Shown piece by piece: positions 3,241-23,504 of a stretch of 43,587 bases of DNA. The notes under the pieces were generated by a model. The model worked only from the letters and a program-made list of their open reading frames with translations, searched no databases and was not told the DNA's origin. Each line of letters begins with the position of its first letter. Position 1 is the first letter of the stretch. The position numbers and the translations under genes are program-made. This stretch comes from Desulfobaccales bacterium (lineage in GTDB: Bacteria > Desulfobacterota > Desulfobaccia > Desulfobaccales > 0-14-0-80-60-11), in the NCBI GenBank assembly GCA_030694005.1, contig JAUXZG010000224.1, positions 1 through 43,587 of the forward strand, read 5' to 3'.

Positions 3241-5523
3241 TCAGAAAGAATCCGGGCTTTCTTGGCCGCGCTTGCCCTCTTCCGGGAAGCGCACCGGCGA
3301 CCGTTTTAATCTCTCACCTAATCCTGGGATGAAAAAGGTAAACCCGACTCTCTTATCGTCCGGCCGTTCGGTGTAAGAGAGAACCACTCCCAGGCATTGG
3401 CGTTGCAAAACCAGTCCATATCGCTTTTCCAATCTTTTGTCGGTTTGAAAAGTATGGCCGTAGGTGACCCAGGTTTTCACCGACTGCATAAGATTTAAAT
3501 AGGTCATCACATTAATTTGTTGGGCGAAATCTTTAATAAAAATGTAATCCAGGCTCAGAAAATTCTGCTTCCGGGCGTCTTGGAGAACCGCCTTGAAATT
3601 GGCTCTGCTAAACCCATCCTCGTAAGTAGAGACCCCCATGCCCATCCCCAAAGTAATTTGCCGGAAAGGATTATATTCCGCCTCCCCCAAGAAGTCGGAG
3701 AAGCGGTGGTGGCGCAGGTTGGTGCCGTCCAGGGCCATGCTGGAAGTGTTGAAGAAGGCGCTCTGGCTCAGACGCAGCCAGAGGAGGTCCGTCACCGTGG
3801 CCTGCCCCTGGCGGTTCTGGTCGCGCTTCAAGATATCGCTGCCGATACTGTAGGTCAGGGCATTCACGCCTCCCAAGGGGTCGTCCCCCTCCCGCACCGG
3901 CAGGTTGCGGTTAGCCTTTACCACCCAACCCTGATCAAAGGGTTCGAAGTTGGGATAACGATTGGCCTCATAACGGGGCATATTCCAATAGGTTACTTCT
4001 GGACGCAGGATATGCCGATAAAATCGGGTGGCCCCGGCTTCCCGACCGTAATCCCGGGACCAGGCGCTGGCTAAAGAAACCTTGGAATCAAAGAGCTGGC
4101 GATCGATATATTGCTCCGGAGGAGCCTCCCGGCCGGTGGGGTCTGTCTGGAGTTTCCCCTGGTTGCTGTGGTCCACCCGAAACAGGGTCTCCCTAAAACC
4201 CGTTCGGGAGCTGAAGGAGAGGCCGGCTAGGGGCTGACCTTGCAGCCACAATTGGGGATGAAGGTCCAGACGGTCGCCGTTCATGCCATGGTCCTGATGA
4301 AAATAGCCATAGGAGGAATCCAGACCCACGAACAGCGGCAAGTTCCCCAGGCGCTGGGGAACGCTCTGCAGGGCCACTCCGGGCAGTCTCTGGTAAGGGC
4401 GTGGATCAGTCTGGTCCAGTCTCTGGTAATAACGGCCATAGGCGGTGAGATTGGCCCAGGAAAAATTGCGGGCCACCAGGAGGTTGGAAACCCGAGTGGG
4501 CACCTCCTCTTGTTCCAGGTCCCGGCCCATTTCCTGGACAAGGTCCCGGGAATAACGATTGAGGCCCATATAGCCGAAATTAAAGTCTTTGAGATAGGCG
4601 GCGTCGCTGACATGGTCCACGGTGAGGCGCATACTGACATCGTTGGGCAAGTCTTGATTCGTCATCCCCGCGGCCCAATAACGGTGAGGGGTAGGGACTT
4701 TCTGAAATTCATGGTCACTCAAGTAGAAGAGACGGAAGTTACTGGCCGTATCCTGGTGCCCCCGCTGGCGAAACTCCCCGCCCTGCATATACCCCCGATT
4801 GGTTAGATAGGTCTGATAAAAAGTGGCATCGGCATGATTGTTTATGGCCCAATAAAAGGGGAGTTCCACTACCGTGCCGCCGGCCCGGTGCTGCCCGAAA
4901 GAAGGCATGAGAAACCCGGTCTGACGGGTGGTCATGACCGGCAAGACGGCAAAAGGGACATAGAGGACCGGCACTCCCGACACCCGCACCAGATTATCCC
5001 GGCTGGTGGCATAGCCCTCCAGGACCACGGTGAGAGTGCGGGCCGAAAAACTCCAGGCCGGCAGGTCCGCATCGCAAGTGGTGACCACCGACCTCTCGGC
5101 ATAATAGGAATTTTCGCCGACTTTGCGGATCAAGGCGCTTTCTATGCGGAAGTGGTTTCTTTTCAAAAAGAGCCGGGCCTCGTGCATCTCGCCACAGCGG
5201 GTGGCCAGGTTGAATTGCCCCTCCTGGCCGGTAAAGATATCTTCCTCCATGACTATCACCACATTGCCCTGTAACCAAGCACTTTTGGTGACCTCATTGA
5301 CCAGGACCCGGTCGGCGCTGAGACGCCGGTCACCCTGCCGGATCTCTACGCGCCCCTGGGCCTCATAAGTATGGGCCTCGGTGTCATAAGTAAGTTTCTC
5401 CGCCCGGATCCTCCAGGGGCCGCCTTCAAAGCGTTCAGACTTGAAGAGCTCCAGCTCCGCGGCCCCGGCGCTGCCCAGGCTTAGCAAAAAAACCAGAACC
5501 CCCCAGATCCAGTACCGTAACAT
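3241..5523 (-). CDS. lptD: LPS-assembly outer-membrane protein LptD-like (760 aa)
   Basis: Signal peptide, OstA-like N-terminus, TTC...PAW motif, RQTGFLMPSFG, LPFYWAI, C-terminal QC in a beta-barrel-like region. Confidence 0.85.
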   Translation of the reverse strand: MLRYWIWGVLVFLLSLGSAGAAELELFKSERFEGGPWRIRAEKLTYDTEAHTYEAQGRVEIRQGDRRLSADRVLVNEVTKSAWLQGNVVIVMEEDIFTGQEGQFNLATRCGEMHEARLFLKRNHFRIESALIRKVGENSYYAERSVVTTCDADLPAWSFSARTLTVVLEGYATSRDNLVRVSGVPVLYVPFAVLPVMTTRQTGFLMPSFGQHRAGGTVVELPFYWAINNHADATFYQTYLTNRGYMQGGEFRQRGHQDTASNFRLFYLSDHEFQKVPTPHRYWAAGMTNQDLPNDVSMRLTVDHVSDAAYLKDFNFGYMGLNRYSRDLVQEMGRDLEQEEVPTRVSNLLVARNFSWANLTAYGRYYQRLDQTDPRPYQRLPGVALQSVPQRLGNLPLFVGLDSSYGYFHQDHGMNGDRLDLHPQLWLQGQPLAGLSFSSRTGFRETLFRVDHSNQGKLQTDPTGREAPPEQYIDRQLFDSKVSLASAWSRDYGREAGATRFYRHILRPEVTYWNMPRYEANRYPNFEPFDQGWVVKANRNLPVREGDDPLGGVNALTYSIGSDILKRDQNRQGQATVTDLLWLRLSQSAFFNTSSMALDGTNLRHHRFSDFLGEAEYNPFRQITLGMGMGVSTYEDGFSRANFKAVLQDARKQNFLSLDYIFIKDFAQQINVMTYLNLMQSVKTWVTYGHTFQTDKRLEKRYGLVLQRQCLGVVLSYTERPDDKRVGFTFFIPGLGERLKRSPVRFPEEGKRGQESPDSF

Positions 5524-5689
5524 CCCTATCTCCTGAAGGCCGTGACTCCTGGAATCGCCGGATCATACCACATGGCCCCCCCATCTTTCAAAAAAGTCGT
5601 GGCCTGGGTGAGCCAAGACTTTTTCAGGAACTAGAAAGCGGCAGAGCCTGGGCCTCAGCAATGGAAGGGCCCCTCGCCACCAACCGCGG

Positions 5690-5718
5690 TTGCAGGGGTG
5701 GGCGTCCTGGCGTATAAT
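5690..5718 (+). promoter_or_regulatory. Candidate sigma70 promoter for tRNA-Arg
   Basis: TTGCAG-17 nt-TATAAT about 75 bp upstream of the tRNA. Confidence 0.5.
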
Positions 5719-5792
5719 AGCAGGCACCGGCCGGGAAGCCAGGGTTATTTACAGCCGCGGTACTCTGGCTGGAAATCTTCGATGGTAATCTT

Positions 5793-5871
5793 GCCCCCGT
5801 AGCTCAGTAATGGATAGAGCAAGGGATTCCTAATCCCTGTGTCCCGAGTTCGAGTCTCGGCGGGGGCGCCA
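5793..5871 (+). tRNA. tRNA-Arg, anticodon CCT
   Basis: Acceptor GCCCCCG/CGGGGGC plus GCCA, D-arm GCTC/GAGC, anticodon arm AGGGA-TTCCTAA-TCCCT, T-loop GTTCGAGT. Confidence 0.97.
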
Positions 5872-5875
5872 TTAA

Positions 5876-5888
5876 TATCAATAAGTTA
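5876..5888 (+). promoter_or_regulatory. IHF-binding consensus site next to the tRNA 3' end
   Basis: TATCAATAAGTTA matches WATCAANNNNTTR exactly. Confidence 0.5.
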
Positions 5889-5971
5889 AACAAAACCTAA
5901 CCCCCCCCTGGGGGCAGCTCAGACCGACTAGGTCGACATCGGCAGAATCTAATTTCCGGTTAAAATTTTTA

Positions 5972-5987
5972 TGGCATATAACTTGCT
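5972..5987 (+). promoter_or_regulatory. sigma54 (-24/-12) promoter upstream of the activator gene
   Basis: TGGCATATAACTTGCT, GG-N10-GC spacing, in AT-rich intergenic DNA. Confidence 0.75.
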
Positions 5988-6103
5988 TAAATATATTATA
6001 ATATTATGGAAGACTAATGTCGGATTTCCTGCCTATCTAAAAGCTTAAGAGAGAGAGACCCACCACGCCGACATAGCCCTTCCCCAATCTTTGGGCACTC
6101 GCT

Positions 6104-7777
6104 ATGGATGCAGATTGTGGGATATTGGTGGTAAGTCGCCACGGTAAGCTGTTGGCCGCCAACCCCATGGCGGAGTCCCTTCTCGCTCGCCCTCTGCCCT
6201 CCGGTAGTCTCCTGGAGGCCGATTGCTCGCTGACCCGTTCCCTCTCCCGGTATGGCCACCCCATCTGGGAAATGCTGAGTCGTGGGGAGGAAGAACACGG
6301 ACTGTTGCAGGTAGATGAGCTAACGGGAACCGGCATTTTTTACAGGTGCATCCCCCTTTTCAACGAGGAGAATATGGTCACGGGCACGGTCATCACCTTG
6401 GAAAGAAGGAGTGACAAAGCCCTGAGCCAGGCCCTTAATTTCCTGGGTCTGACCCCCGATGAGATCATGGACCAGATTCCGGAGGGGGTGTTTGTGGTAA
6501 ACACCCGGTGGCAACTCAGTTATTTTAACCACACCGCCCAGGAAATCACCGGGTATTCCCGGGACGAAGCCATGGGCAAGTTTTGCTGGGACATCTTCCG
6601 GACCGAGCTGTGTCACAAGAAATGCCCTATGCGCATCTCCATGAGCACCGGCCAGGCCCTGATGGACCAGGAAGTGGAAATCCTCACCAAATCGGGTCAA
6701 AAAAAATTGATCCTGCTTAATACCGCGCAGATCAAAAAGCCGGGCAACCGGGTGCTGGGAGGGGTGCAGACCTTTCGCGACCTGAGCGGCCTCCAGTACC
6801 CAGAGGAAGGGAAGGGTCGTGAGGTTATTGCAGACATCGTGGGGGTCAGTCCCCGGATGCAGGAAATTATCCAAAGCCTTCCCATCATTGCCGCCTCCGA
6901 CTCCAATGTGCTGATCCTGGGCGAGTCGGGAACCGGCAAAGAGCTCATCGCCCGGGCCATTCACCTGCTGAGCCCCAGGCGTAAAGGGCCCTTTCAGGCC
7001 ATCAATTGTTCGGCGATCCCGGAGACTTTACTGGAGTCCGAGCTTTTTGGCTACGAGCGGGGGGCTTTCACGGGGGCCGTGAGCAGCAAGGCGGGAAAGT
7101 TTGAGTTGGCCAAGGGCGGCACGCTATTTCTGGATGAGATCGGCGACCTCCGGCCGGAGCTCCAGGTGAAGCTGCTGAGGGTGTTGGAGGGTAGAGGCTT
7201 CGAGCGGGTGGGCGGCAATCGGAAAATCCCCCTGGAGGCCAGGATTGTTGCGGCCACCAATGTGGAACTGCAGGAAGCCATGCGACAGGGCCGGTTCCGG
7301 GACGACCTTTACTACCGGCTCTTCACCGTGCCCATCCACCTGCCGCCCCTGCGGGAAAAGCGGGAAGATATCCCCATCCTCGTCAAGTACTTCCTGGAAC
7401 AGCTCAACCAAAAATTTAACAAGAGAATCAGGGGGGTGGACCCCAAGGTGATGAAAATTTTCTGCCGCCACCCCTGGCCCGGCAATGTGCGGGAAATGCA
7501 GCATGTCTTGGAATACTGCTTCGTCTTTGCCAAGGGCCCCTTCATCACCGAGCGTCATCTGCCTCACCTGGAAAGCGCCTGGGCCGGCAGAGAACTGGAG
7601 TCGCTGGATAGTTCCCTCAGCCCCTTACAGGCACTAGAACGAGAAACCATCCTCAAGGCCCTGGAGCGCGTGTACGGCAGCAAGCACGAGGCGGCTCGGG
7701 TGCTGCAAATCAGCCGCAGCAAGCTGTGGAGAAAAATGCGGTCCTATGAGATCAGGGATGCTGAATTTAAAAAATGA
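6104..7777 (+). CDS. PAS-domain sigma54-dependent enhancer-binding activator (557 aa)
   Basis: PAS (FNHTAQEITGYS..E..GK.C), Walker A GESGTGKE, ESELFGYERGAFTGA, LFLDEIGD, WPGNVRE, Fis-type HTH AARVLQISRSKLWRKM; no receiver domain. Confidence 0.95.
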   Translation: MDADCGILVVSRHGKLLAANPMAESLLARPLPSGSLLEADCSLTRSLSRYGHPIWEMLSRGEEEHGLLQVDELTGTGIFYRCIPLFNEENMVTGTVITLERRSDKALSQALNFLGLTPDEIMDQIPEGVFVVNTRWQLSYFNHTAQEITGYSRDEAMGKFCWDIFRTELCHKKCPMRISMSTGQALMDQEVEILTKSGQKKLILLNTAQIKKPGNRVLGGVQTFRDLSGLQYPEEGKGREVIADIVGVSPRMQEIIQSLPIIAASDSNVLILGESGTGKELIARAIHLLSPRRKGPFQAINCSAIPETLLESELFGYERGAFTGAVSSKAGKFELAKGGTLFLDEIGDLRPELQVKLLRVLEGRGFERVGGNRKIPLEARIVAATNVELQEAMRQGRFRDDLYYRLFTVPIHLPPLREKREDIPILVKYFLEQLNQKFNKRIRGVDPKVMKIFCRHPWPGNVREMQHVLEYCFVFAKGPFITERHLPHLESAWAGRELESLDSSLSPLQALERETILKALERVYGSKHEAARVLQISRSKLWRKMRSYEIRDAEFKK

Positions 7778-7925
7778 GACGCCTTTTGCAATTGTGCCAC
7801 ATTTCTTTAAAGACCTAACTATCAGATTTAACAGAATTTAATTAATAAATGCCCTAATTTGTTTTAATTTCGCTCATTTTTTGCCCCGCCCAATTTTTCT
7901 CTCTTTTCAAAAATAATCTTCTCTT

Positions 7926-7943
7926 AAAATTTCGCGACATTTT
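7926..7943. promoter_or_regulatory. Near-perfect palindrome, candidate upstream activator site
   Basis: AAAATTTCGCGACATTTT (one mismatched pair) about 150 bp upstream of the sigma54 site at 8091. Confidence 0.35.
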
Positions 7944-8090
7944 GCCTTTTTGATAACTATATGAATATGCTGGTATTATTTGATATGCTTTAAAAGATGT
8001 TTTAATTCCGCCCACTTTTATTCCTGCCTGAAAGTTCAATATCTCTCCGCCATCGCCAAAAAACTAATGATGTCAATGTGATAAGCTATT

Positions 8091-8106
8091 TGGCCCCCTC
8101 TTTGCT
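8091..8106 (+). promoter_or_regulatory. sigma54 promoter of the redox operon
   Basis: TGGCCCCCTCTTTGCT with GG-N10-GC spacing, ending 40 bp before the GTG start. Confidence 0.7.
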
Positions 8107-8145
8107 CTTATAGGAAGCAAAAGAGAGCCAAAAGGAGATAGGACC

Positions 8146-8610
8146 GTGAGCGTATCTTTCGAAAAAATTGAAGCCATATTGGACCGTTTCCCGCCGCAGC
8201 CGGAACATCTGGTCAGCGCTTTCCAGGAGATCCAAGCCGAGTTCAAGTATATTCCCGCGGACGCCTTCAATGCGGTGTGCGATCACCTGGGGGTGCCTCG
8301 GTCGCAAGGCTGGGCGGTGGCCACCTTTTTCAAGTCTTTCAGTTTTGAGCCTAAGGGAATCCATGAGATCAAGGTCTGTCTGGGCACCGCCTGTCACCTT
8401 AAGGGCGGGGCCCGCCTGGTAGAGGGCCTGGAACGGGAACTGAAGGTGGAACGGGGCCATACCACCGGTGACTTACTCTTTACCTTGGATACGGTCAACT
8501 GTGTGGGAGCCTGCGCTCTGGCCCCGGTAGTGGTAGTGGGTGAAGAGTATCAAGCCAATACCAATTCCCGGAAGCTCAAAAAGCATCTGAAAAAGGTTGC
8601 GGCTGAGTAG
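8146..8610 (+). CDS. NuoE/HydC/BamG-like [2Fe-2S] subunit (154 aa)
   Basis: VATFF, VCLGTACHLKG, VNCVGACALAP; SD AAGGAG. Confidence 0.92.
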   Translation: MSVSFEKIEAILDRFPPQPEHLVSAFQEIQAEFKYIPADAFNAVCDHLGVPRSQGWAVATFFKSFSFEPKGIHEIKVCLGTACHLKGGARLVEGLERELKVERGHTTGDLLFTLDTVNCVGACALAPVVVVGEEYQANTNSRKLKKHLKKVAAE

Positions 8611-8634
8611 AACCCGCACACAAGGGGTGAGGTC

Positions 8635-10536
8635 ATGCGACAAATTAGCACTGCCTTAAAACTGGATGAAAATCGGCTCGCTTCCCCGGCGGCCCTGGCG
8701 GCCTATCGGGAAAGCATCCTGGCCGAGAGGGATCCCAACCGGCCCATCATCATTGTCTGCCACGGCACCGGCTGTCTGGCGACCAATAGCCCGAAAGTCG
8801 CCGACACCCTGCGCCGGGCCATCGCCGCGGCCGGGCTCCAAGCTCAGGTGGTCCCGGAGATCAAGACTACCGGCTGTCACGGCTTTTGCTCCCGGGGCCC
8901 CTTGGTGATTTTCCACCCCACCGGCTTATTCTACCAAAGAGTTCAGCCGGAGGATGTCGAGGAAATCGTCCAGACAACCCTCCTGGAAGGGAAGCCGGTG
9001 GAGCGTCTGCTCTACGTAGATCCGAACACCGGGGAGCACATCGTGCACGATCACGATATCCCCTTTTACAAATATCAGCAGCGTCTGGTGCTGCGGAACA
9101 TTGGCAAGATCGACCCGGCTGACATCCGGGACACCATTGCTGCGGGCGGTTACCAGTCCCTGGCCAAGGTCCTGGCCGGCATGACCCCGGAGGAAGTCAT
9201 TGCTGTGGTGGAGACCTCGGGGTTGCGCGGCCGGGGCGGCGGCGGCTTCCTGGCCGGACGGAAATGGCGCCTGGCCGTGGAAAATGTTCGAAAGAGCCCC
9301 GGGCCGGTCTACGTAGTGGGCAATGGCGACGAAGGGGACCCCGGAGCCTTCATGGACCGGACTCTGATGGAGGGCGATCCCCATGCCGTCCTGGAGGGGA
9401 TGATCATCGGCGCCTATGCCCTGGGCGCCCAACAGGGCTACATTTACGTGCGACTCGAATACCCCCTGGCCGTCCGGCACCTCTCGGTAGCCATCGAGCA
9501 GGCCCGGGCCCTGGGACTCCTGGGTCAAAACATCCTGGGCACGGGCTTTGATTTCGATATCAAGATCAACCGGGGCGCGGGGGCCTTTGTCTGCGGCGAA
9601 GAGACCGCCCTGATCGCCTCGCTGGAAGGGCGGGTGGGGGAACCCAAAACCAGGCCGCCCTATCCGGCTGAAAAGGGACTCTGGAACCGGCCCACCATCA
9701 TTAACAACGTGGAGACCTGGGGAAACGTCCCCCAGATCATCGAAAAGGGGGCCGATTGGTTTGCCGGCATGGGGGTGCCCCACAGCACCGGCACCAAGAT
9801 CTTTTCCCTGGTGGGCAAGGTTAACAATGTGGGTTTGGTGGAAGTGCCCATGGGCATCACCCTGGGTCGCATCGTCGAAGAGATCGGCGGCGGGGTGCCG
9901 GGCCGAGACGAGTTCAAGGCCGTCCAGACCGGCGGTCCCTCTGGAGGTTGTATCCCCTGGGAACTCAAAGATACCCCCGTGGACTTTGACTCCTTGACCC
10001 GAGTTGGATCGATGATGGGGTCGGGGGGCATGATCGTCATGGATAAACGGGACTGCATGGTGGATGTGGCCAAGTATTTCCTGGAATTTCTCATGGATGA
10101 ATCCTGTGGCAAGTGCGTTCCCTGTCGGATGGGGCTCGAGCGGATGCATGCCATGTTGGGAGAGTTTACCATGGGCAAGGGGAGCCTGGAGGACCTGGAC
10201 GAGCTTCACTCTCTGGCCGAAGGGATAAAGGACGGCTCCCTTTGCGCCCTGGGGGGGACCGCTCCTAATCCGGTGCTTTCCACTATCCGTTACTTCCGGG
10301 ATGAATATGAAGCCCATATTCTCCACAAGACCTGTCCCGGCAAGGTTTGCCGGGAATTGATCACTTATGCCATCAACTCGGAACTCTGTAACGGCTGTAC
10401 CCTTTGCGCCCGAGAATGTCCGGCGGGGGCGATTACCGGGGTGAAAAAGAAACCTCACGAAATCAACAGCTCTCTGTGTATCAAATGTGGCGTCTGCTTC
10501 GAGGTCTGCAAACCCGAAGCGGTGGAAATCTTGTAA
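8635..10536 (+). CDS. NuoF/HydB/BamH-like FMN- and NAD(H)-binding subunit with extra Fe-S domains (633 aa)
   Basis: N-terminal thioredoxin-like CHGTGC...CHGFC, GLRGRGGGGF, DEGDPGAFMDR, GAFVCGEETAL, GGPSGG, ESCGKCVPCR, C-terminal 2x[4Fe-4S]. Confidence 0.95.
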   Translation: MRQISTALKLDENRLASPAALAAYRESILAERDPNRPIIIVCHGTGCLATNSPKVADTLRRAIAAAGLQAQVVPEIKTTGCHGFCSRGPLVIFHPTGLFYQRVQPEDVEEIVQTTLLEGKPVERLLYVDPNTGEHIVHDHDIPFYKYQQRLVLRNIGKIDPADIRDTIAAGGYQSLAKVLAGMTPEEVIAVVETSGLRGRGGGGFLAGRKWRLAVENVRKSPGPVYVVGNGDEGDPGAFMDRTLMEGDPHAVLEGMIIGAYALGAQQGYIYVRLEYPLAVRHLSVAIEQARALGLLGQNILGTGFDFDIKINRGAGAFVCGEETALIASLEGRVGEPKTRPPYPAEKGLWNRPTIINNVETWGNVPQIIEKGADWFAGMGVPHSTGTKIFSLVGKVNNVGLVEVPMGITLGRIVEEIGGGVPGRDEFKAVQTGGPSGGCIPWELKDTPVDFDSLTRVGSMMGSGGMIVMDKRDCMVDVAKYFLEFLMDESCGKCVPCRMGLERMHAMLGEFTMGKGSLEDLDELHSLAEGIKDGSLCALGGTAPNPVLSTIRYFRDEYEAHILHKTCPGKVCRELITYAINSELCNGCTLCARECPAGAITGVKKKPHEINSSLCIKCGVCFEVCKPEAVEIL

Positions 10537-10550
10537 GGGGAGGGCGGGGC

Positions 10551-11123
10551 ATGATCAGCTTCACTATTAACGACCGGGAAGTAACAGGCCAAGAAGGCTG
10601 GACCATCCTGGAGGTGGCCAAGTGGCACGGCATCGACATCCCCACCCTCTGCTACCATGGCGCCGTGGAACCGTATGGCGCCTGCCGGCTCTGCGTGGTA
10701 GAGGTGGATGATGGGCAGCAGCGGCGGTTGGTAGCCTCCTGTCTCCATCCCGTTCAAGAAGGGCTCAAGGTGCAGACCGACAGCGAGCGGGTGAAAAACG
10801 TGCGCCGCTGGATTTTGCAAATGATGGTGGATGAACATCCCGGCTCCCAGAGAATCAAGGAGCTGGCCAAGTCCTATGGCGTGAAGGAATCCAGGTTTAA
10901 GAGTGATCGCGTTGAAGATTTGTGTATTTTATGCGGTCTCTGCGTCCGGGCCTGCGATGAGGTGGTGGGCGCGCGGGCCATCTCCCTCGGCAACCGGGGA
11001 GTGCGCAAAGAGGTGGCCACCACCCATCGTCTTCCCAGCCCGGAATGTGTTGCCTGTGGGACCTGCCTCTATGTCTGTCCCACGGGCGCGATGGAACAAT
11101 TATTCGACCGGATCAGGGGTTGA
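10551..11123 (+). CDS. Short NuoG/HydA-N-terminus/BamI-like Fe-S protein with no catalytic domain (190 aa)
   Basis: IPTLCYH...GACRLCVVE...ASC [2Fe-2S]; CILCGLCVRAC and CVACGTCLYVCP [4Fe-4S]; then stop. Start ATG 10551 after GGGAGG. Confidence 0.9.
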   Translation: MISFTINDREVTGQEGWTILEVAKWHGIDIPTLCYHGAVEPYGACRLCVVEVDDGQQRRLVASCLHPVQEGLKVQTDSERVKNVRRWILQMMVDEHPGSQRIKELAKSYGVKESRFKSDRVEDLCILCGLCVRACDEVVGARAISLGNRGVRKEVATTHRLPSPECVACGTCLYVCPTGAMEQLFDRIRG

Positions 11124-11168
11124 CCCTGAAAAATCCTGGTCGCGGCAGGCGTGAATAAGGAGAAGGAC

Positions 11169-13595
11169 ATGAAGAACAACGAAGCCAAAATCGGCGTTTT
11201 CCTTTGCGAGTGCGGCGGAAAAATCAGCAGCCGCATAGACCTGCCGGCGGTGGGCGAATTGCTCAAGTATGAACCCTGGGCGCATCTGGAGATTTCCCCT
11301 TACCCTTGCCTGGCCCCCGGTCTGGAAGCCATGCAGGCGAAGGTGCAGGAAAAGGGGCTCAACCGGATCCTGGTGGGCGGCTGTTCTTCCCGAGTGATGA
11401 AAAAGAAGTTCGCCGCGGCCCTGGCGCCGGTGGGGATCCACGAGTACCAGGTGGAGATGGTTAACTTAAAGGACCACGTGGCTGCCGTCCACGAAGACTC
11501 TCCGCAAAAGCTGGCCCGCAAGGCCGCGGCCCTCCTGGCCGGGGGAATGGCCGGGCTTCGGCTCCTGGAGCCTTACGAACCCGTCTCGGTACCCTTTCAG
11601 GGGCCGGTCCTCATCATGGGCGGCGGCATCTCCGGTTTCGCGGCGGCCCGGGAACTGGCCCGCAAGGGGATGGAGAGCCGGCTCTTTTCCCCCGCCCGGG
11701 ATCCAGGCCAGGTCCTGGCACAACTCCCGCGAACTTTTCCCGGCAGCCAGCTTTTCTCTAAAGAACTGACAGAACTCCTCCGGGAAGTGTTCACCAGCCC
11801 CCTGGTCAAGGTTTTACCTGACCTGCCGGTGGAATATGTGGTGGGACACGTGGGCGATTATCGCCTGGGGTTGCGCCAATCCGACGGCACGGTGACCGAG
11901 GTGACCGGCTCGGCCTTGATCCTGGCCCTGGATCGGGAGTTCGTCCCCGGAGATTACGAATATATCGGGGGCGGCGAGCGGGTGTGCGATCTGCTGGAGA
12001 TGGAGGAACGCCTGGCCCAGGGCGAAATTGAGGCCGGCAAAGTGGTCTTCTGGGTGAACAGCCCGGAACACGGTAAAGCCGCCCAGCAGTTCAACGCAGT
12101 GGCCGCCTGGCGGAACAGCCTGGTGCTGGCCCGGAATCATCCCCGGGTAAAACCCACCGTGCTTTACCCGGCCAACATTACCCTGCCGCTCAGCGGCGCC
12201 GACCTGGCGGAGGCGCGGGGGTGCGGCATTGCCCTGCAGTCTTACGCCCCGGAGGTCCACCCCGTGGTCCAGTCCGGATACCTGACTTACTTCAGCCCTC
12301 AAGACCATCTGGAGCACGAACTGGAATGGGACAATCTGGTGGTCTCCATGGTGCCGGGAGAGCCGGCGGCCAAAACCCAGGAACTGCTCCGGTGGCTGCC
12401 CGTGTACTCGGAAAACGGGGGCCGGCTCAGAAAAACGCAACTGAAACTCAAGCCCGATCAGGTGGCCGATGAGACCATTTTTCTGACGGGATCAGCCGGC
12501 GAACTTAAGGACCTGAACGAAGTCTTGAGACAGGGCAAGAAGGCGGCCCAAGGGGTGTTGCACCTCCAGGAAAAGGCCAAGAGGGGCGCCCTGGTGAGCC
12601 CGGTGGTGGTCACCATCGACCAGGACCTCTGTGAAGGCTGCGGCCTCTGCACCGAAATCTGTCCCTGCGGTGGAGTGGAGCACGTCAAACCCGGCAGCGG
12701 CCCGGTGCCGCGCCACGCGGACAGCCACCTCTGCAGCGGCGGCGGCACCTGTGCGGCCACTTGCCCTTACGAAGCCGTCAAGATGCTCAATAATACCGCC
12801 CAGCAACTGGAGGCGCGCCTCAAGGCGGTGCTCTCCCGGATGCAGGAAAATGAGGCGCTGGGGTTCATTTGCAGTTGGGGCGGCCTGGGCGCCGCGGATC
12901 TGGCCGGAGTTAAGGGGCTTTCCTACCCCCGCGGGGTATATCTAATCCCGGTGAACTGCCTGGGTTCCATTGATCCCGCCATCTTTTCCATGGCCTTTGT
13001 GAACGGGGCGAACAGCATCCTCCTGGGCGGCTGTACGCCCACGGCCTCCTGCCACTATGTCTACGGGGTGGATCATTCCTGGGTTCGGGTCAATATCATG
13101 AAAAAGCTCCTCTCCCTGGCCGGTCTGGAGCGGAGACGGATCACCATGGGATATGTGGACGTCAACCAGCCGGAGGCCTTTGTGCGCATGGTGGAGTCCC
13201 ACCTGGACGGGATGCATAAATTGGCCCCCATTAACCGGGACGAAAAAACCAAGACCAAACTCTGGGCCATCCATGCTACGCTCCACCGTCCCCGGGTGCG
13301 CTGGGTTTTGGGGACGAGTTTGAGAAGGCCCACCGAGAAGGAGTTTCCCGGCGAGCAAGTCAACGCCGTAGATGCCGATGAGACCATGCTGGACGTGCTC
13401 CGGGAGGAGTTTCTGGCCTCCAGAATCCTCAAGGCCATCCATGACCAACCTCTCAACCCGCCACAAATTGCCCAAAGCATGGATGAGCCGGTGAAGACAA
13501 TTACCCCCATGTTGACTGATATGGCCAAGGAGGGTCGGGTTACCATTAAGAGCTGGGAAGGCGGCTATCCCCTCTATGCTACCGGTAAGCCGTGA
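11169..13595 (+). CDS. HdrA-like / 2x[4Fe-4S] ferredoxin / MvhD(FlpD)-like / C-terminal winged-helix fusion (808 aa)
   Basis: IGVFLCECG...GGCSSR...EMVNLKDH (HdrA N-terminus), GGGISG, CEGCGLCTEICP and CSGGGTCAATCP, FICSW...ADLAG...VNCLG...GGC....SCHY (MvhD), HTH-like tail; SD AAGGAG. Confidence 0.85.
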   Translation: MKNNEAKIGVFLCECGGKISSRIDLPAVGELLKYEPWAHLEISPYPCLAPGLEAMQAKVQEKGLNRILVGGCSSRVMKKKFAAALAPVGIHEYQVEMVNLKDHVAAVHEDSPQKLARKAAALLAGGMAGLRLLEPYEPVSVPFQGPVLIMGGGISGFAAARELARKGMESRLFSPARDPGQVLAQLPRTFPGSQLFSKELTELLREVFTSPLVKVLPDLPVEYVVGHVGDYRLGLRQSDGTVTEVTGSALILALDREFVPGDYEYIGGGERVCDLLEMEERLAQGEIEAGKVVFWVNSPEHGKAAQQFNAVAAWRNSLVLARNHPRVKPTVLYPANITLPLSGADLAEARGCGIALQSYAPEVHPVVQSGYLTYFSPQDHLEHELEWDNLVVSMVPGEPAAKTQELLRWLPVYSENGGRLRKTQLKLKPDQVADETIFLTGSAGELKDLNEVLRQGKKAAQGVLHLQEKAKRGALVSPVVVTIDQDLCEGCGLCTEICPCGGVEHVKPGSGPVPRHADSHLCSGGGTCAATCPYEAVKMLNNTAQQLEARLKAVLSRMQENEALGFICSWGGLGAADLAGVKGLSYPRGVYLIPVNCLGSIDPAIFSMAFVNGANSILLGGCTPTASCHYVYGVDHSWVRVNIMKKLLSLAGLERRRITMGYVDVNQPEAFVRMVESHLDGMHKLAPINRDEKTKTKLWAIHATLHRPRVRWVLGTSLRRPTEKEFPGEQVNAVDADETMLDVLREEFLASRILKAIHDQPLNPPQIAQSMDEPVKTITPMLTDMAKEGRVTIKSWEGGYPLYATGKP

Positions 13596-13623
13596 TGATG
13601 GCGAGCAATACCGCAATAAATAT

Positions 13624-16146
13624 TCAAATTAACGACAGCCTCTCGTCGTAAATGAATTCCCGGGTATGCCTGGCAACCCTTTCCGGTTCCAGGTGAATCC
13701 TGGCGGTGCCGGTCTCCATGCCGGCCCGGGCCACCGCCTCGGCGACGGCCGGCGGCACCCTAAAATCCATAGCGCCCGGCAGGATATAACCGGGGCTCAA
13801 TTTATCGCCTACCAAATCGGCGATAGCGTGGGCCGCCGCCATATTCATGGCATCATTGATGGCTCTCGCCCGGATGTCCAGGGCGCCGCGAAAGATGCCG
13901 GGAAAGGCCAGACAGTTGTTCACTTGATTGGGGAAATCCGATCGGCCCGTGGCCACCACCGCCGCTCCGGCCATTTTCGCCTCGTCGGGGTGGATTTCCG
14001 GGTCAGGATTGGCCAGGGCAAAGACAATGGGGTCCTTAGCCATGGATTTCACCATTTTCTGGGTCAGCACGTTGGGCCCGGAGAGCCCGATAAAGACTTC
14101 CGCCCCCCTCAAGGCGTCCGCCAGGCTGCCCTTTTGCTTTTCAGCGTTGGTGATTTGCGCCAACTCTTTCTTGATGAAATTCATCCCCTTAAGACGCCCC
14201 TGGTAAATAACCCCGGTGGTATCGCAGATAATGATGTTTTGGGCGCCGGCCAGGAGCAAAAGTTTGGTCACGGCGATGGCGGACGCGCCGGCGCCGCTGA
14301 AGACAATCCTTACCTCTGCCAGTTTACGGTCCACGATCTTCAAGGCATTCATCAAGGCGGCCATGGCGACCACCGCAGTGCCGTGCTGATCGTCATGAAA
14401 TACCGGAATATCCAGGCGTTCGCCTAATTTTCGCTCAATTTCAAAACAACGGGGCGACGAGATATCCTCCAGGTTAATCCCGCCGAAGGCCGGAGAGATG
14501 TTTTCCACCAGTTTAACCACCAAATCGGTTTCCTGGGTACTGATGCAGATGGGAAAGGCTTCGACGCCCCCGAAGGTTTTAAACAGGACGGCTTTCCCCT
14601 CCATGACCGGCAGTGCCGCCCGGGGGCCGATATTCCCCAGGCCCAAAACCGCGCTGCCGTCGGTAACTATGGCCACCAGGTTATTTTTGCAGGTATAGTC
14701 ATAGGCCCCCATGGGGTCCTTAAGAATTTTCTGACAAACCTCGGCCACCGCCTCCGGGGAATAGAGCCGTTTATAAATGACTTCATCCTTGATGGGCACC
14801 TTGGTGTAAACCTGCACACACCCCTGATAGCGGCGATGCAGTTCCAGGGCTTCCTCGTTAAGGCTCATTTTGCCGTAATCCTGGCCTTCCGAGGGCAGCC
14901 AGGCCAGTTCTCCCTCGTAAATATATCTTTCCGTCCGCTCTTGAACTCTTTCCGGAGACATTTCTGCGGGAGTCAGTTGCGCCGCGCCGGTTTCCTGAGC
15001 CGCCTGGGCTACCGCTCTGGCCACCACCGGGGAGATTCTCCAGTCCATTTGCCGGGGAATAATATTGCTGGGAGACAATTCTTCTTCCGGAATCATGTCC
15101 GCCACGGCCCGGGCCGCGGCCAGGAACATCTCGATGTTGACCCTTTCCGCCCCCACATCCAGGCATCCCCGGAAAAATCCCGGAGTTACTAGAGATGAGC
15201 GTATCTGGTTTTCGCTGTCCGCCTGGCCGGTGGCCACCACTTTGGCGCCTCCGGCTTTGGCTTCGGCTTCGCTGATTTCCGGCTCCGGCAGAGCCAGGGC
15301 AAAGACGATGGGGTCTTTGGCCATACTGGCGACCATTTCCCCATTGACCAATCCTCCTGCGGACAGGCCGATAAAAACATCCGCGCCTTTTATGACCTCA
15401 GCCAGGCTGCCTCTGACGTCCCGGGGTTTAACCAGACGGGCGATTTCCGATTTGGCCCAATTCATTCCTACCAAGCGGTAAACGCGCAGCGCCCCATGCC
15501 GGTCGCAAAGGACAATATCTTCGATGCCCGCCACCAGCAGTCCTTTGGCCACCCCAATGCCGGCGGCGCCGGCGCCGTTGATGACTATCTTCACTTCGGT
15601 CAAGCTTTTCCCCACCACCTTGAGGGCGTTATATAGGGCAGCCAGCACAATTATGCCCGCGGCATGGTTTTCATGGTGCAGCACCGACACCCTCACCGCT
15701 TTCCTGATCCTGTTCTCAATAGTGAAGCATTTGGGGGCGGCAATACTTTCCAGACAAAATCCTCCAAAGGAAGGGGCGAGGGAACGGACAATTTCTACTA
15801 TCTCATCGGCATCTTGAGTCAGCAGCGCAATGGGCACGGCATCCACGTTGGCAAAAGTTTTATAGATAACCGACTTGGCTTCCAACTTGGGCAGGGCTGC
15901 TAAAGCCCCGATATTGCCAAATTCATAAACGCGACTGCCATCCGTGATCAGGGCAATGGAATTGCCCCGGCAGGTGTAGCGGTAGGAGGCGATGGGGTGC
16001 TTTTCGATCTCCCGGCAGACGGCCCCCACTCCGGGCGTGTAGATCCGACTCAACACGGACACATCCCTGATGGGCATCTTGCTTTTGATGCCAATTAAGC
16101 CGCGATAACGCCGCCGATAAGCTAAGGCGTCTGATTCGGTAACCAT
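13624..16146 (-). CDS. Tandem (two-domain) malic enzyme with degenerate N-terminal copy (840 aa)
   Basis: Two ~420-aa malic-enzyme repeats in one frame. C-terminal copy has VMEGKAVLFK, NLEDI, HDDQHGTA, GAGASA, NQVNN. Start ATG 16146 after GAGGT. Confidence 0.92.
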   Translation of the reverse strand: MVTESDALAYRRRYRGLIGIKSKMPIRDVSVLSRIYTPGVGAVCREIEKHPIASYRYTCRGNSIALITDGSRVYEFGNIGALAALPKLEAKSVIYKTFANVDAVPIALLTQDADEIVEIVRSLAPSFGGFCLESIAAPKCFTIENRIRKAVRVSVLHHENHAAGIIVLAALYNALKVVGKSLTEVKIVINGAGAAGIGVAKGLLVAGIEDIVLCDRHGALRVYRLVGMNWAKSEIARLVKPRDVRGSLAEVIKGADVFIGLSAGGLVNGEMVASMAKDPIVFALALPEPEISEAEAKAGGAKVVATGQADSENQIRSSLVTPGFFRGCLDVGAERVNIEMFLAAARAVADMIPEEELSPSNIIPRQMDWRISPVVARAVAQAAQETGAAQLTPAEMSPERVQERTERYIYEGELAWLPSEGQDYGKMSLNEEALELHRRYQGCVQVYTKVPIKDEVIYKRLYSPEAVAEVCQKILKDPMGAYDYTCKNNLVAIVTDGSAVLGLGNIGPRAALPVMEGKAVLFKTFGGVEAFPICISTQETDLVVKLVENISPAFGGINLEDISSPRCFEIERKLGERLDIPVFHDDQHGTAVVAMAALMNALKIVDRKLAEVRIVFSGAGASAIAVTKLLLLAGAQNIIICDTTGVIYQGRLKGMNFIKKELAQITNAEKQKGSLADALRGAEVFIGLSGPNVLTQKMVKSMAKDPIVFALANPDPEIHPDEAKMAGAAVVATGRSDFPNQVNNCLAFPGIFRGALDIRARAINDAMNMAAAHAIADLVGDKLSPGYILPGAMDFRVPPAVAEAVARAGMETGTARIHLEPERVARHTREFIYDERLSLI

Positions 16147-16315
16147 TTCTGCTATACCTCGAAAGGCTAAAGGTAGCTTATTTGTCTCCTGACTTGGCCC
16201 CGGGTCCAGGAAAATGATGGTCGCGTCGGAAAACCGGCCCGGACCCTGCTGGTTGAGGCGACCGTGGTCCTTACCCCACCTTACGCGGGTACCATTGACC
16301 ATCCCGTGACATTTT

Positions 16316-16342
16316 AAGGGTTCATGTAGGGCTTGAACCCTT
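16316..16342. promoter_or_regulatory. Perfect 9-bp inverted repeat (terminator, attenuator or operator)
   Basis: AAGGGTTCA-N9-TGAACCCTT flanked by T runs. Confidence 0.35.
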
Positions 16343-16658
16343 TTGGATTAAGATATTAACCCTTTACTTTCTGGAATACAATCCTTCAGCTTCCGTCTCC
16401 AGGCATAACAGCCGAAATAAAGACGCCGTAAGGTTAAATTATGTTAATAGCCTGATGAACTTAAGTCTGGCCTGCAGAGCAGACTTCCCTCTTGACTCGG
16501 ACCTTCACCTGGGGGCATGTTTTTGTTTCTTCTATTTAGGCAGGTCTCCTTTTGGGCCCCCTCCCGAGCTTTGATAACCAAAATGAATATCAATTTCAAA
16601 ATATTATACTACTTGACCCCGCCGCCGGTGGCCTGATTCTCTTTCGTAGACGCCAATA

Positions 16659-16674
16659 AGCAAGGCGTCGGCCA
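16659..16674 (-). promoter_or_regulatory. Candidate sigma54 promoter facing the malic enzyme gene
   Basis: Minus strand TGGCCGACGCCTTGCT, GG-N10-GC; about 500 bp from the start codon. Confidence 0.45.
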
Positions 16675-17006
16675 ATTCTGCTTGGCAAAATATTCAGCCT
16701 CATGAATCAGCGAGGTGAGCCTCTAATCCATGACCCGAGGAAAACCATGGGGATAAAACCCAGCGGCCTAGTTCTTGCTTAAATCATTAAAAATCTATAT
16801 AAGTTAACCTTAATGAAAATTAGATTTAGGCTCTTTAAGCGGGGATGGCAGATGGGGGGATCCCCACAAAATGATTGAGCCACCTACACGGTTCAGATAC
16901 ACTGTCAAGGCAATGGCTACCTTTCCCCTGGGGCGGCAGCTATCAGCGTGATGGCTTGCTTTTAGATGAGAATCCCTTAAGTAAAAGAATTGGCTAACGA
17001 GAGACT

Positions 17007-18338
17007 GTGACTACCGCAAAAATGTTGGAAGAAAAAATTCTGTCACGTCGGGCCTTGATCGGCATCATCGGTCTGGGCTATGTCGGTCTGCCGATAGTCC
17101 TCCGCTTTGCTCAGCAGGGCTTTACCGTCCTTGGGTTTGATACCGACCCTCAAAAAGTAGCAGCCCTCAATTCTGGAAAATCCTATATCCAGCATATTCC
17201 CAGCGACCGGATCGCCGCGCTGCGCCCGCCGGCGTCGGTGGACCCAAAGTTTGAAGCCACCAGCGACCTGAGGCGCCTTAAGGAACCGGACGCCTTGCTG
17301 ATCTGCGTGCCAACCCCGCTCAACCGCCATCGGGAACCGGACCTTAACTACCTGGTGCAGACCACCAGAGACATTACCCAGACCTTAAGGGTGGGTCAAC
17401 TGGTTTCTTTAGAGTCCACCACCTACCCCGGCACTACCGAAGAGGTCATGTTGCCCCTGCTTAAGGCCACTAACTTGAAAGTAGGGGAAGATTTCTTCCT
17501 AATTTATTCGCCAGAGCGGGAGGACCCAGGCAATCCCACCTATAATGTTTTTAACATCCCTAAAGTGGTAGGGGGCATCACCGAAACGTGCTCCCGCCTG
17601 GGGGAGATCCTTTACGGCCAGATCGTGGAACAGGTGGTCCCGGTATCCTCCACCCAGGTAGCGGAGATGACCAAGCTCCTGGAAAACATCTACCGGGCAG
17701 TGAATATTGCCCTGGTAAATGAACTCAAGGTTCTGTGCCTGCGCATGAATATGGATATCAACGAAGTTATCAACGCGGCCAAGACCAAGCCTTTCGGATT
17801 CCAGGCTTTTTATCCCGGGCCGGGGTTAGGGGGGCATTGTATCCCCATAGATCCATTTTATTTGACCTGGAAAGCCCGGGAGTATGATTTCAGCACGCGC
17901 TTAATTGAACTGGCCGGCGAGATCAACACCCACATGCCTTATTTTGTCATCGAACGAACCGTCCAGGCCCTCAACGACCGCGGCCAGCCCATTAAAGGGA
18001 CCCGGGTATTGGTAATCGGCGTTGCTTATAAGAAAGATGTTGATGACTTGCGGGAATCCCCCAGTTTAAAACTGATTGACTTGTTGCTCCAGAGGGGGGC
18101 GCGGGTGGACTATCATGATCCTTATATTCCGGTAATGCCGCGCACCCGGCGCCATCAATTTGATATGCGGTCCGTACCCCTTACTCCAGAAAATCTGGCC
18201 ACCTATAGCGCCGTAATTATTGCCACCGACCATTCCTGTCTGGACTACCAAAGCCTAGCCACTCATGCTCCCTTAATCATAGACACCCGCTATGCTATCC
18301 CAGGCAGGAGCTATGCCGAGAAAGTGATAAGGGCCTGA
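17007..18338 (+). CDS. wbpA: UDP-N-acetylglucosamine 6-dehydrogenase (WbpA/WecC family)
   Basis: GLGYVGLP, LESTTYPGTT, SPEREDPGN, GPGLGGHCIPIDP, YKKDVDDLRESP; start GTG 17007 or ATG 17022. Confidence 0.88.
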   Translation: MTTAKMLEEKILSRRALIGIIGLGYVGLPIVLRFAQQGFTVLGFDTDPQKVAALNSGKSYIQHIPSDRIAALRPPASVDPKFEATSDLRRLKEPDALLICVPTPLNRHREPDLNYLVQTTRDITQTLRVGQLVSLESTTYPGTTEEVMLPLLKATNLKVGEDFFLIYSPEREDPGNPTYNVFNIPKVVGGITETCSRLGEILYGQIVEQVVPVSSTQVAEMTKLLENIYRAVNIALVNELKVLCLRMNMDINEVINAAKTKPFGFQAFYPGPGLGGHCIPIDPFYLTWKAREYDFSTRLIELAGEINTHMPYFVIERTVQALNDRGQPIKGTRVLVIGVAYKKDVDDLRESPSLKLIDLLLQRGARVDYHDPYIPVMPRTRRHQFDMRSVPLTPENLATYSAVIIATDHSCLDYQSLATHAPLIIDTRYAIPGRSYAEKVIRA

Positions 18339-23284: not shown

Positions 23285-23301
23285 AAGGCCTTTAGGGGGG
23301 T

Positions 23302-23504
23302 CTTTGGGGAGGGGGCTAAGGGCCGGTGGGCCCACTTACTACCCTCCCCCAAACCCCCACCCCCAACCCCTTAAGATTCTGGTGCTGGGTAAGTCGGGGC
23401 CTCTGGCCCCGCCTTCCCTGGCTCCCTTAAAGGGGGTTGGGTGGGGAGTTTAAGGGGAGGGTGGGGGAACACTTACAAAAAATTCCCCCAGCCCTCCCCT
23501 CAAA
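23302..23504. repeat. Family A repeat, reverse orientation relative to 1-202; overlaps the bioH 3' end
   Basis: Reverse complement of the 28-nt core (1 mismatch) and the same module order as 1-202. Confidence 0.85.

Follow-up and report, generated by a model that had tools for sequence, protein, structure and literature searches.

A predicted sigma54-controlled Bfu-HdrA operon lies beside a probably unrelated tandem malic enzyme gene in a Desulfobaccales bacterium

Several described systems bring together the kinds of subunits encoded at the locus analysed here. In Bam-Bfu, the class II benzoyl-CoA reductase (BamB-I) of Geobacter and Desulfosarcina, NuoE-, NuoF- and NuoG-N-terminal-like subunits occur with an HdrA-type flavoprotein, and the available text on this complex proposes a two-stage scheme in which the Bfu module feeds HdrA (PMC9304861). 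The Bfu family (HydABC, NiFe-HydABCSL and NfnABC) and the MvhADG-HdrABC and HdrA2B2C2 complexes of methanogens are further points of comparison. BamE and BamF are presumably homologs of HdrA and MvhD. In Desulfotignum phosphitoxidans, the same kinds of genes form nuoEFG-mvhD-hdrA clusters, each presented as one putative transcription unit; in the accessible part of that publication the clusters are mentioned at the level of annotation and without regulation, and their likeness to the operon described below is one of gene kinds only (PMC4046663). An earlier note on this DNA had regarded the gene combination as undescribed, which does not hold for the operon type, because these clusters and Bam-Bfu are already published, at least as far as the accessible parts of both sources go.

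Concerning regulation, OrpR of D. vulgaris Hildenborough is a PAS-AAA+-HTH protein whose [4Fe-4S] PAS sensor motif consists of C52, D-E54, C61 and C65 according to the available portion of PMC8359166. In D. vulgaris, an adh-hdr operon has a response regulator of its own, which binds to a direct repeat, as stated in the accessible text of PMC3333781. The terms hdr, flx, NADH, alcohol dehydrogenase and malic are absent from the paper on the D. vulgaris sigma54 regulome (PMC4641369).

The window, i.e. the whole stretch of DNA that was analysed, comprises 43,587 nucleotides of a Desulfobaccales bacterium (contig JAUXZG010000224.1, assembly GCA_030694005.1). The earlier note had described an activator gene, a four-gene operon and a double malic enzyme gene, and Pfam and NCBIfam matches bear these descriptions out. 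On the forward strand, the gene of an activator with PAS, Sigma54_activat (E = 1.3e-68) and HTH_8 domains (6104-7777) is followed by the genes of a NuoE/HydC-like, that is BfuC-like, [2Fe-2S] subunit (8146-8610; PF01257, E = 2e-40), a NuoF/HydB-like (BfuB-like) FMN/NADH subunit (8635-10536; Pfam and solved-chain matches), a small Fe-S subunit similar to BfuA, the HydA N-terminus and HoxU, with 2Fe-2S and 2x[4Fe-4S] domains (10551-11123; Pfam Fer2_4 and Fer4_7, and NCBIfam), and an HdrA-MvhD fusion with a C-terminal winged-helix-like tail (11169-13595, with an alternative GTG start at 11151; FlpD, E = 1.1e-29). The small Fe-S gene starts at 10404 in the list of open reading frames, but Pfam matches and orthologs start at 10551. 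On the reverse strand, the open reading frame 13624-16302 encodes the tandem malic enzyme, with two malic and two Malic_M matches. Since its best 120 relatives have 812-858 aa, mostly 840, the real start is at 16146, which gives a gene at 13624-16146 and a protein of 840 aa. The operon and the malic enzyme gene indeed converge within 28 bp, as had been noted: the stop codons are separated by 28 nt (13596-13623), and this junction is a lineage-specific rearrangement point. Two unrelated units, a sigma54 Fe-S flavoprotein module and an independent malic enzyme, quite probably stand side by side here.

An Rfam search of 5400-17100 (E up to 1) returned only a tRNA and one chance miRNA match, and recognized no described RNA element within the leader of the malic enzyme gene. 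In a scan of 13300-17010, sigma70-like promoters (2 against 2.8 expected) and terminator-like sites (7 against 5.2 expected) were recorded, and none of them fell inside the 28-nt gap.

The activator consists of a weak N-terminal PAS domain (residues 1-90), a PAS domain with a Cys triad, an AAA+ domain with GAFTGA and an HTH_8 domain. Its AAA+ sigma54-interaction domain (PF00158) scores 230 bits and its C-terminal HTH (PF02954) 39 bits; together with the GAFTGA found in the translation, this is the domain set of an enhancer-binding protein. The source genome also encodes rpoN (TIGR02395, 444.6 bits, above the cut-off, on contig C34). Activator orthologs start near residue 91 (6374), and the weak first PAS domain is an extra domain with respect to OrpR. 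In the second PAS domain, the motif C161-x-D163-x6-C170-x3-C174 is invariant in the alignment of all ten activator orthologs, and the Cys motif is also found in 8/8 distant activators. Its Cys/Asp spacing is that of OrpR, C-x-(D/E)-x6-C-x3-C, as defined in the available text of PMC8359166. This PAS domain most likely holds a redox-sensitive [4Fe-4S] cluster, as indicated by the conserved motif. One has to bear in mind that these two proteins were compared on the PAS-AAA+-HTH architecture and the common Cys/acidic motif alone, and that their regulons differ: orp operons in the accessible account of OrpR, a Bfu-HdrA operon in the window.

Sigma54 promoters are characterized by a GG element and a GC element separated by 10 nt, their core being TGGC-N7-TTGC. 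Such motifs had been proposed upstream of the three units and all three are present, but conservation is restricted to those preceding the activator gene (TGGCAT-N5-TTGCT, 5972-5987, forward strand) and the operon (TGGCCC-N5-TTGCT, 8091-8106, forward strand, about 40 nt before the operon); the motif upstream of the malic enzyme gene (16660-16674, reverse strand) is a motif match only. The strict form, TGGC-N7-TTGC, occurs six times in the window against 2.73 expected, and six of 100 shuffles reach that number. Genome-wide, 24 of 87 strict sites are intergenic against 15.3 expected. Because the genome-wide enrichment is only mild, a single instance of the motif is weak evidence. On the other hand, the operon promoter is conserved at the same aligned place in 10/10 orthologous loci, and TGG[CT]A-N6-TTGC precedes the activator gene in all nine orthologous loci.

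Four direct repeats resembling enhancers, with a consensus of about yGTTTyAATTyCGCnCAtt, are located on the forward strand between the activator gene and the operon promoter, at 7784-7802 (weak), 7860-7878, 7923-7941 and 7998-8016. Aligned blocks of three to four sites are conserved across 10 loci, and the activator site suggested earlier at 7926-7943 falls on the conserved repeat at 7923-7941. When a matrix was trained on the nine other loci, its top three matches in the window were those at 7860, 7998 and 7923, and the matrix scan found only one triple cluster of such sites in the genome. The same matrix gave nothing above background upstream of the activator gene (5870-5971) or upstream of the malic enzyme gene (16675-17000). 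Since its matches near the activator promoters of orthologous loci are inconsistent, no autoregulation site can be called.

The activator gene adjoins the operon in 9/9 orthologous loci whose flank extends far enough, and the gene order of the operon is identical across these loci. Furthermore, a type with 38-40% identity is found at eight loci of three other families, where the activator is adjacent in seven and the promoter motif is present in all eight. The source genome itself has an operon paralog (contig C171), which is also flanked by an activator and has a motif at -73. The queries found no further conserved genes in 12 orthologous or 8 distant loci, and the conserved core consists of four genes. 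The earlier proposal that the activator and the operon form a sigma54 unit is thus supported by conserved adjacency, promoters and repeats: the activator, the promoter and the operon are a conserved, predicted sigma54 unit.

Regarding the encoded complex, the BfuB-like subunit carries an N-terminal 2Fe-2S domain, an FMN/NADH site and a C-terminal 2x[4Fe-4S] domain (Pfam). It matches solved bifurcating HydB/NfnB chains end to end (7t2r_B, E = 1.2e-227, residues 37-626), whereas its matches to complex I NuoF are limited to residues 151-561. The full-length matches to HydB/NfnB, with E-values of 1e-227 to 1e-198, agree with the previous assignment of this subunit to the bifurcating HydB (Bfu) type and link the putative complex to the Bfu family, as do the BfuC- and BfuA-like partners in the same operon. 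The BfuBC core was defined by the BfuB and BfuC domain sets given in the accessible text of PMC9304861, and Pfam and solved-chain alignment found both the BfuB set and the BfuC 2Fe-2S domain. The BfuC-like subunit matches HoxE/NuoE NCBIfam models, all below their cut-offs. The BfuA-like subunit has Fer2_4 and a 4Fe-4S dicluster domain, assigned at the Pfam level and not by individual ligands, and matches two NCBIfam models, namely HoxU and, over positions 1-207 of 571, the N-terminus of group A6 FeFe hydrogenase. In contrast to the Bfu family, BfuA here has only 190 aa, without H-cluster, pterin or Nfn domain, and the third-substrate module is HdrA-MvhD.

The HdrA part of the fusion matches the solved chain 8rvu_a (E = 1.6e-48) and the MvhD part 5odc_D (E = 5.3e-19). 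Foldseek also recovers the HdrA fold (5odc_A, E = 4.8e-32 over about 660 columns), and the HdrA-type cysteines are invariant in the alignment. The likeness to MvhADG-HdrABC and HdrA2B2C2 of methanogens therefore concerns HdrA and MvhD, by both sequence and fold; the best NCBIfam model is the HdrA2 fusion (E = 7.9e-87), with 292 bits against a cut-off of 1100 bits. Unlike the methanogen complexes, the locus lacks HdrBC and hydrogenase. Unlike Bam-Bfu, it has no tungsten BamBC or other catalytic subunit, and HdrA and MvhD are fused and followed by a winged-helix tail.

From these features, a model can be proposed in which the OrpR-like activator would sense the redox state through a [4Fe-4S] cluster in its Cys3/Asp PAS domain, bind the three to four repeats at 7784-8016 and turn on the sigma54 promoter at 8091. 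The operon would then yield a soluble complex of four subunits, BfuC, BfuB, small BfuA and HdrA-MvhD, produced only under a reduced cytoplasm. In this complex, the BfuBC core may exchange electrons with NAD(H) and ferredoxin, and BfuA and the MvhD [2Fe-2S] cluster may connect this core with the flavin of HdrA, in line with the proposal for BamGHI and the HdrA module, while the final partner of HdrA would be encoded outside the operon. We infer Fe-S sensing and bifurcation from homology, and also infer which way the electrons flow.

The identity of this partner leads to a more specific proposal, which seems rather unlikely: the complex could work as an Flx-Hdr-like NADH dehydrogenase, in which the high-potential electron from HdrA passes to an HdrBC- or HdrD-type (CCG-domain) protein whose gene lies elsewhere, so that DsrC or some other disulfide is reduced together with ferredoxin. 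In heterodisulfide reductases, electrons enter through HdrA and MvhD, and the source genome carries CCG-domain stretches, 12 in all, on seven contigs other than that of the operon. The adh-hdr operon of D. vulgaris, under its dedicated response regulator binding a direct repeat (as described in the available text of PMC3333781), is also consistent with such a function. However, no CCG-domain (HdrB/HdrC) match occurs in the window, the CCG-domain stretches lie on other contigs, and the locus does not encode the catalytic partner expected of an HdrABC system. Moreover, the core does not extend beyond the four genes in the orthologous and distant loci mentioned above, and the extra gene found in 7/11 orthologous operon loci is FrhB-like, not HdrBC.

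An improbable reading is that the complex does not bifurcate at all and simply acts as an oxidoreductase between NADH and ferredoxin, or NADH and an unknown acceptor, with HdrA-MvhD as a mere electron wire. The lack of a gene for a catalytic terminal subunit in the operon would fit, and bifurcation cannot be demonstrated by homology alone, but the BfuB domain set, which separates HydB/NfnB from complex I NuoF under the definition in the accessible part of PMC9304861, together with the end-to-end alignment, argues for a bifurcating type.

As for the malic enzyme, its C-terminal half keeps the motifs EGK, LEDI, HDDQHGTA, ALANP and NQVNN, which are invariant in 126 tandem proteins and common to solved enzymes, and whose residues we take to have catalytic roles. 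In the N-terminal half these motifs are degenerate: D is replaced by S or G in 120/126 sequences and, in most sequences, DD by HE, N by L and NN by RS, while the fold and GxGxxG are kept in the sequence and the structure model. Judging by these motifs, the N-terminal half is a conserved pseudo-enzyme and the C-terminal half is the catalytic one. The latter resembles small prokaryotic malic enzymes, since 5cee_A matches residues 418-816 (E = 4.7e-127; about 50% identity by Foldseek) with all conserved motifs kept. Hybrid MaeB enzymes have a PTA-like second domain, whereas the tandem enzyme has a degenerate malic enzyme copy instead. None of the 36 solved chains matched has the tandem form, and a phrase search of the literature found no paper on a tandem, double, duplicated or fused malic enzyme, while a broader search brought up nothing relevant. 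A tandem malic enzyme of which one half is live and the other degenerate yet strongly conserved seems not to have been reported as an architecture before. The enzyme was found in 31 of the 38 other searched genomes of the order. As no second malic enzyme was found in the source genome, a housekeeping role is expected.

The earlier note had joined this enzyme to the operon in a single module. The NAD(P)H produced by malic enzyme and the binding of NAD(H) by BfuB would fit such a link. Nevertheless, the neighbourhood survey does not support membership in the module and gives the outcome that the note had named as refuting, homologs of the two units that do not co-occur: the operon was absent beside the malic enzyme at 80 genome and 80 metagenome loci (0/160), and none of the 12 operon loci has a malic enzyme beside it. 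In the same family, all 12 genomes that have both units carry them on different contigs; 11 others encode the malic enzyme but lack the operon, and one shows the reverse. Sequence homology ends at 13613 for the nearest operon locus and at 13626 for the nearest malic enzyme contig, and a relative with 92% DNA identity has only the malic enzyme cassette 13626-16282 in common with the window. The junction is real and not an assembly error, since it is bridged (13596-13623) by independent contigs of four runs from three studies. On these comparisons, the malic enzyme is a chance neighbour of the operon, found only in this lineage; it would have moved there by recent rearrangement and would stay outside the regulon.

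It is very improbable that the link is real but restricted to this lineage, the relocated gene having gained a working sigma54 promoter and the complex either taking malate-derived NAD(P)H or driving reductive pyruvate carboxylation. The motif at 16660-16674 is of consensus quality (TGGC-N7-TTGCT), intergenic and oriented toward the malic enzyme gene, and the junction is confirmed in several groundwater samples. Yet the motif is 514 nt away from the real start, on its upstream side, and falls beyond the cassette that the 92%-identical relative has in common with the window. Of 66 other malic enzyme loci, just four have a motif of this kind within 800 nt, its position ranging from -433 to -618. 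An alignment of the upstream regions of the window and 11 of these 66 loci showed no conserved block. Being distant from the start and not conserved, the motif is no better than chance, and it probably arose by chance or was acquired locally and recently. Shared regulation, which had been part of the earlier proposal, is not borne out either, no enhancer-like sites being found near the motif, and the housekeeping role expected of a sole malic enzyme does not favor it either. The malate link can thus be removed as a false lead, an accident of gene order.

The least probable reading, that HdrA-MvhD acts as a redox-dependent DNA-binding regulator instead of or besides being an enzyme subunit, draws on a tail that is predicted confidently as a winged helix (helix-helix-helix-strand-strand at about 90 in an AlphaFold model with pLDDT 87.1) and retained in homologs (807 aa) down to 37% identity, matching at 96-100% coverage, but its Pfam HTH matches are only sub-threshold (E = 0.0085) and winged helices serve as protein-docking domains too.

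Returning to the sigma54 Fe-S flavoprotein module, a doubtful but far-reaching possibility is that the four-gene core is already a complete enzyme, in which two different bifurcating centres, the flavin/Fe-S site of Bfu and the flavin of HdrA, would be coupled in series with soluble carriers only and without a catalytic end subunit, the whole being switched on by the Fe-S-sensing activator. If true, such a serial Bfu-HdrA enzyme would make very-low-potential electrons or balance the NADH and ferredoxin pools, and its core would be a new enzyme type, conserved in at least four families of the phylum.

With the malic enzyme set aside, what is delimited is a compact unit of a regulator, a promoter, enhancer-like sites and four structural genes. 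Because this unit is conserved across several families, its redox signal and its chemistry are directly testable. This matters since electron-bifurcating complexes determine how much energy is available to anaerobes living close to the thermodynamic limit, among them these groundwater relatives of sulfate reducers.

The gene calls of the earlier note were borne out by the ORF list together with Pfam and NCBIfam scans. The sigma54 activator (6104-7777, +) carries PAS, AAA+ sigma54-interaction and HTH_8 domains, with GAFTGA in its translation, and is directly followed on the same strand by an operon of four tightly spaced genes. These encode a NuoE-like 2Fe-2S protein (8146-8610), a NuoF-like protein with extra N-terminal 2Fe-2S and C-terminal 2x[4Fe-4S] domains (8635-10536), a 190-aa Fe-S protein like the N-terminus of HydA, HoxU or NuoG (10551-11123), and an HdrA-MvhD fusion ending at 13595, whose homologs have 807 aa, which makes 11169 a more probable start than 11151. 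On the minus strand, an ORF at 13624-16302 contains two malic enzyme modules; the best 120 relatives measure 812-858 aa, nearly all 840, and therefore the true start is 16146. As previously reported, the stop codons of the operon and the malic enzyme lie 28 nt apart, and TGGC-N7-TTGC is found at all three proposed sigma54 sites (5972, +; 8091, +; 16660-16674, -); the window holds six matches to this pattern versus 2.73 expected. The region is flanked on both sides by cell-envelope sugar genes and LptD. A tRNA-Arg(CCT) gene (5793-5871, +) precedes the sigma54 promoter of the activator by about 100 nt, and a biotin-synthesis-like run at 22493-27198 (-) encodes a methyltransferase, an alpha/beta hydrolase, a class I/II aminotransferase, a dethiobiotin-synthase-like AAA_26 protein and a radical SAM protein with a BATS domain.

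The activator, the operon and the malic enzyme had been proposed to form one sigma54 regulon. The comparative data sustain this for the activator and the operon, which they indicate to be one conserved sigma54 unit, but not for the malic enzyme, whose co-location is absent and whose motif is not conserved. With HdrA-MvhD as query against 41 related genomes, full-length orthologs (67-87% identity) were found in 13 of 24 same-family genomes, with one ortholog divided between two contig ends, and in none of the 14 second-family genomes searched. Wider flanks were taken for 12 of the 13 loci. The order NuoE, NuoF, Fe-S protein and HdrA-MvhD is unchanged wherever the contig permits, and an activator ortholog (72-85%) lies immediately upstream in 9/9 loci with enough flank. 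The operon promoter motif TGG(C/T)CC-N-TTGCT occupies the same aligned place in 10/10 loci, window included, and a second sigma54 motif precedes the activator gene in 9/9.

Between the activator and the operon, the alignment revealed four conserved blocks (consensus approximately yGTTTyAATTyCGCnCAtt), and the activator site suggested by the earlier note coincides with the conserved repeat at 7923-7941, a putative enhancer. A weight matrix for these enhancer-like repeats was trained on the nine other loci only, with the window excluded. Its top three matches in the 43.6 kb are the sites at 7860, 7998 and 7923 (25.3, 19.9 and 17.2 bits), followed by a match of 16.7 bits. In the whole genome, which encodes rpoN, the region upstream of the operon is the only place with three enhancer-like sites inside 300 nt. 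Among 301 sampled genomes of the phylum, 15, belonging to three other families, also have relatives with 38-40% identity. At the eight of these distant loci for which flanks were taken, the four genes keep the same order (8/8), a TGGCCC...TTGC(A/T) motif stands about 80-120 nt before NuoE (8/8), and the activator adjoins the operon in 7/8. A paralogous module exists on another contig of the genome, C171, where a separate activator (47% identity) adjoins it and a sigma54-like motif is placed at -73. This module, from activator to HdrA-MvhD, spans C171:1417-9020 at 39-64% identity, and in one relative (L117) the operon and its paralog are in tandem.

Gene neighbourhoods place the malic enzyme outside this unit. 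A species-level genome collection gave 146 confirmed malic enzyme loci, and at the best 80 of these tblastn (E up to 1e-10) had no hit to NuoE, to NuoF or to the Fe-S protein; 59 of the 80 extend at least 2.5 kb past the stop of the malic enzyme. Seven of the 80 had only HdrA paralogs, at 24-32%, in another part of the flank. When 80 of 163 metagenome contigs were tested in this way, the result was again negative (0/80; at least 1.5 kb downstream in 58), and no malic enzyme was found at the operon loci (0/12). The expected co-occurrence is thus contradicted, and presence is discordant as well: in the family of 24 genomes, 23 have the tandem malic enzyme and 13 the operon, 11 have the enzyme without the operon and one the reverse, and both lie on separate contigs in 12/12 genomes having both.

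The 28-nt gap itself is a rearrangement junction, because the match of the window to L124, the nearest contig with a malic enzyme (92% DNA identity), is confined to 13626-16282, and that to the nearest operon locus ends at 13613. In L124 the sequences flanking the malic enzyme match C13 and C239, two further contigs of this genome. An assembly error is dismissed, since contigs from four runs of three studies, one run possibly being the source sample, bridge the junction. The malic enzyme gene and 136 nt upstream behave as a relocated cassette (13626-16282). In one run (X4), a contig matches the malic enzyme side and is of different sequence before 13626; the enzyme may sit in another context in a co-occurring strain. 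As for the sigma54-like motif at 16660, the malic enzyme start is 514 nt away, and the cassette shared with L124 does not include the motif. Such a motif occurs within 800 nt of the malic enzyme in just 4/66 other loci, at other positions, and the weight matrix found no enhancer-like site near it.

A side finding of interest is the tandem malic enzyme itself. Its halves are 46% identical across 418 residues, and the C-terminal half aligns with the solved NAD-malic enzyme 5cee_A (E 4.7e-127) with high identity throughout. The residues of LEDI, HDDQHGTA, ALANP and NQVNN have known catalytic roles in other malic enzymes. Across a set of 126 tandem proteins, eight of which come from loci at 53-75% identity, all conserved motifs are intact in every C-terminal half. 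The N-terminal half has LE(S/G)I for LEDI in 120/126 and fixed replacements elsewhere (HHE(F/N)HAAG for HDDQHGTA, ALALP for ALANP, NQIRS for NQVNN), and retains GxGxxG. This half, without the conserved metal and substrate motifs, is yet strongly conserved itself across the 126 (HHE-x-H, RSS). The set spans Desulfobaccales to Nitrospirota-labelled MAGs. In the structural model (pLDDT 79.4, pTM 0.74) each half is like small malic enzymes. A housekeeping function fits, because this is the sole malic enzyme found in the genome. A phrase search of the literature found no paper on a tandem-type malic enzyme.

Concerning the operon product, the NuoF-like protein can be aligned over its whole length with solved HydB/NfnB chains of bifurcating enzymes (7t2r_B, E 1.2e-227, residues 37-626; also 7q4v, 8a6t, 7p5h and 9n5u), whereas complex I NuoF covers just residues 151-561. 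By homology, the subunit is of the BfuB type. In PMC9304861, the bifurcating Bfu family is defined by a BfuBC core, exactly as in the operon. Bam-Bfu, in which an HdrA module is proposed there to receive electrons from BamGHI, would be the closest model. The HdrA-MvhD protein matches the methanogen HdrA and MvhD chains in sequence and fold. No HdrBC-type gene was found within the operon locus, and CCG domains are encoded only on other contigs of the genome. An FrhB/FdhB-like fifth gene with a 2x[4Fe-4S] domain follows HdrA-MvhD in 7/11 orthologous loci with downstream flank (L112, L115, L116, L118, L119, L120 and L122); it was not found in this genome, whose completeness is 94.7%, or at the eight distant loci. 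Our reading is that the four genes make a soluble NADH/ferredoxin module of the Bfu type, wired to an HdrA flavin whose final partner the operon does not encode. In D. phosphitoxidans, nuoEFG had already been noted in gene clusters together with mvhD and hdrA (PMC4046663).

The last 75 residues of HdrA-MvhD (13365-13595, +; residues 739-814) form a confidently predicted winged-helix-like tail in the AlphaFold model (pLDDT 87.1). The predicted helix, helix, helix, strand, strand order fits the winged helix guessed previously, and Pfam gave only sub-threshold HTH matches. This tail on a redox enzyme subunit is retained in homologs down to 37% identity and could serve either docking or DNA binding.

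The PAS domain of the activator bears C161-W-D163-x6-C170-x3-C174, invariant in 10 aligned orthologs and present in 8/8 distant or paralogous activators. The spacing is identical to that of OrpR, a sigma54 activator of D. vulgaris. According to PMC8359166, OrpR has a [4Fe-4S] cluster that responds to redox state and controls sigma54 activation, and this cluster requires PAS residues C52, C61 and C65 and an acidic residue at 54. By this analogy, the activator looks like a redox sensor and would bind a [4Fe-4S] cluster. About 90 additional residues at the N-terminus (6104-6373) match PAS weakly (E 0.0056) and have no counterpart in nine orthologs, which begin near residue 91; they are either an extra sensor domain specific to this lineage or the product of an ORF called too long. 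Overall, the operon encodes a well-defined, conserved and biochemically uncharacterised form of a known kind of complex, in a clade perhaps already listed in PMC9304861, under a probably redox-sensing activator.
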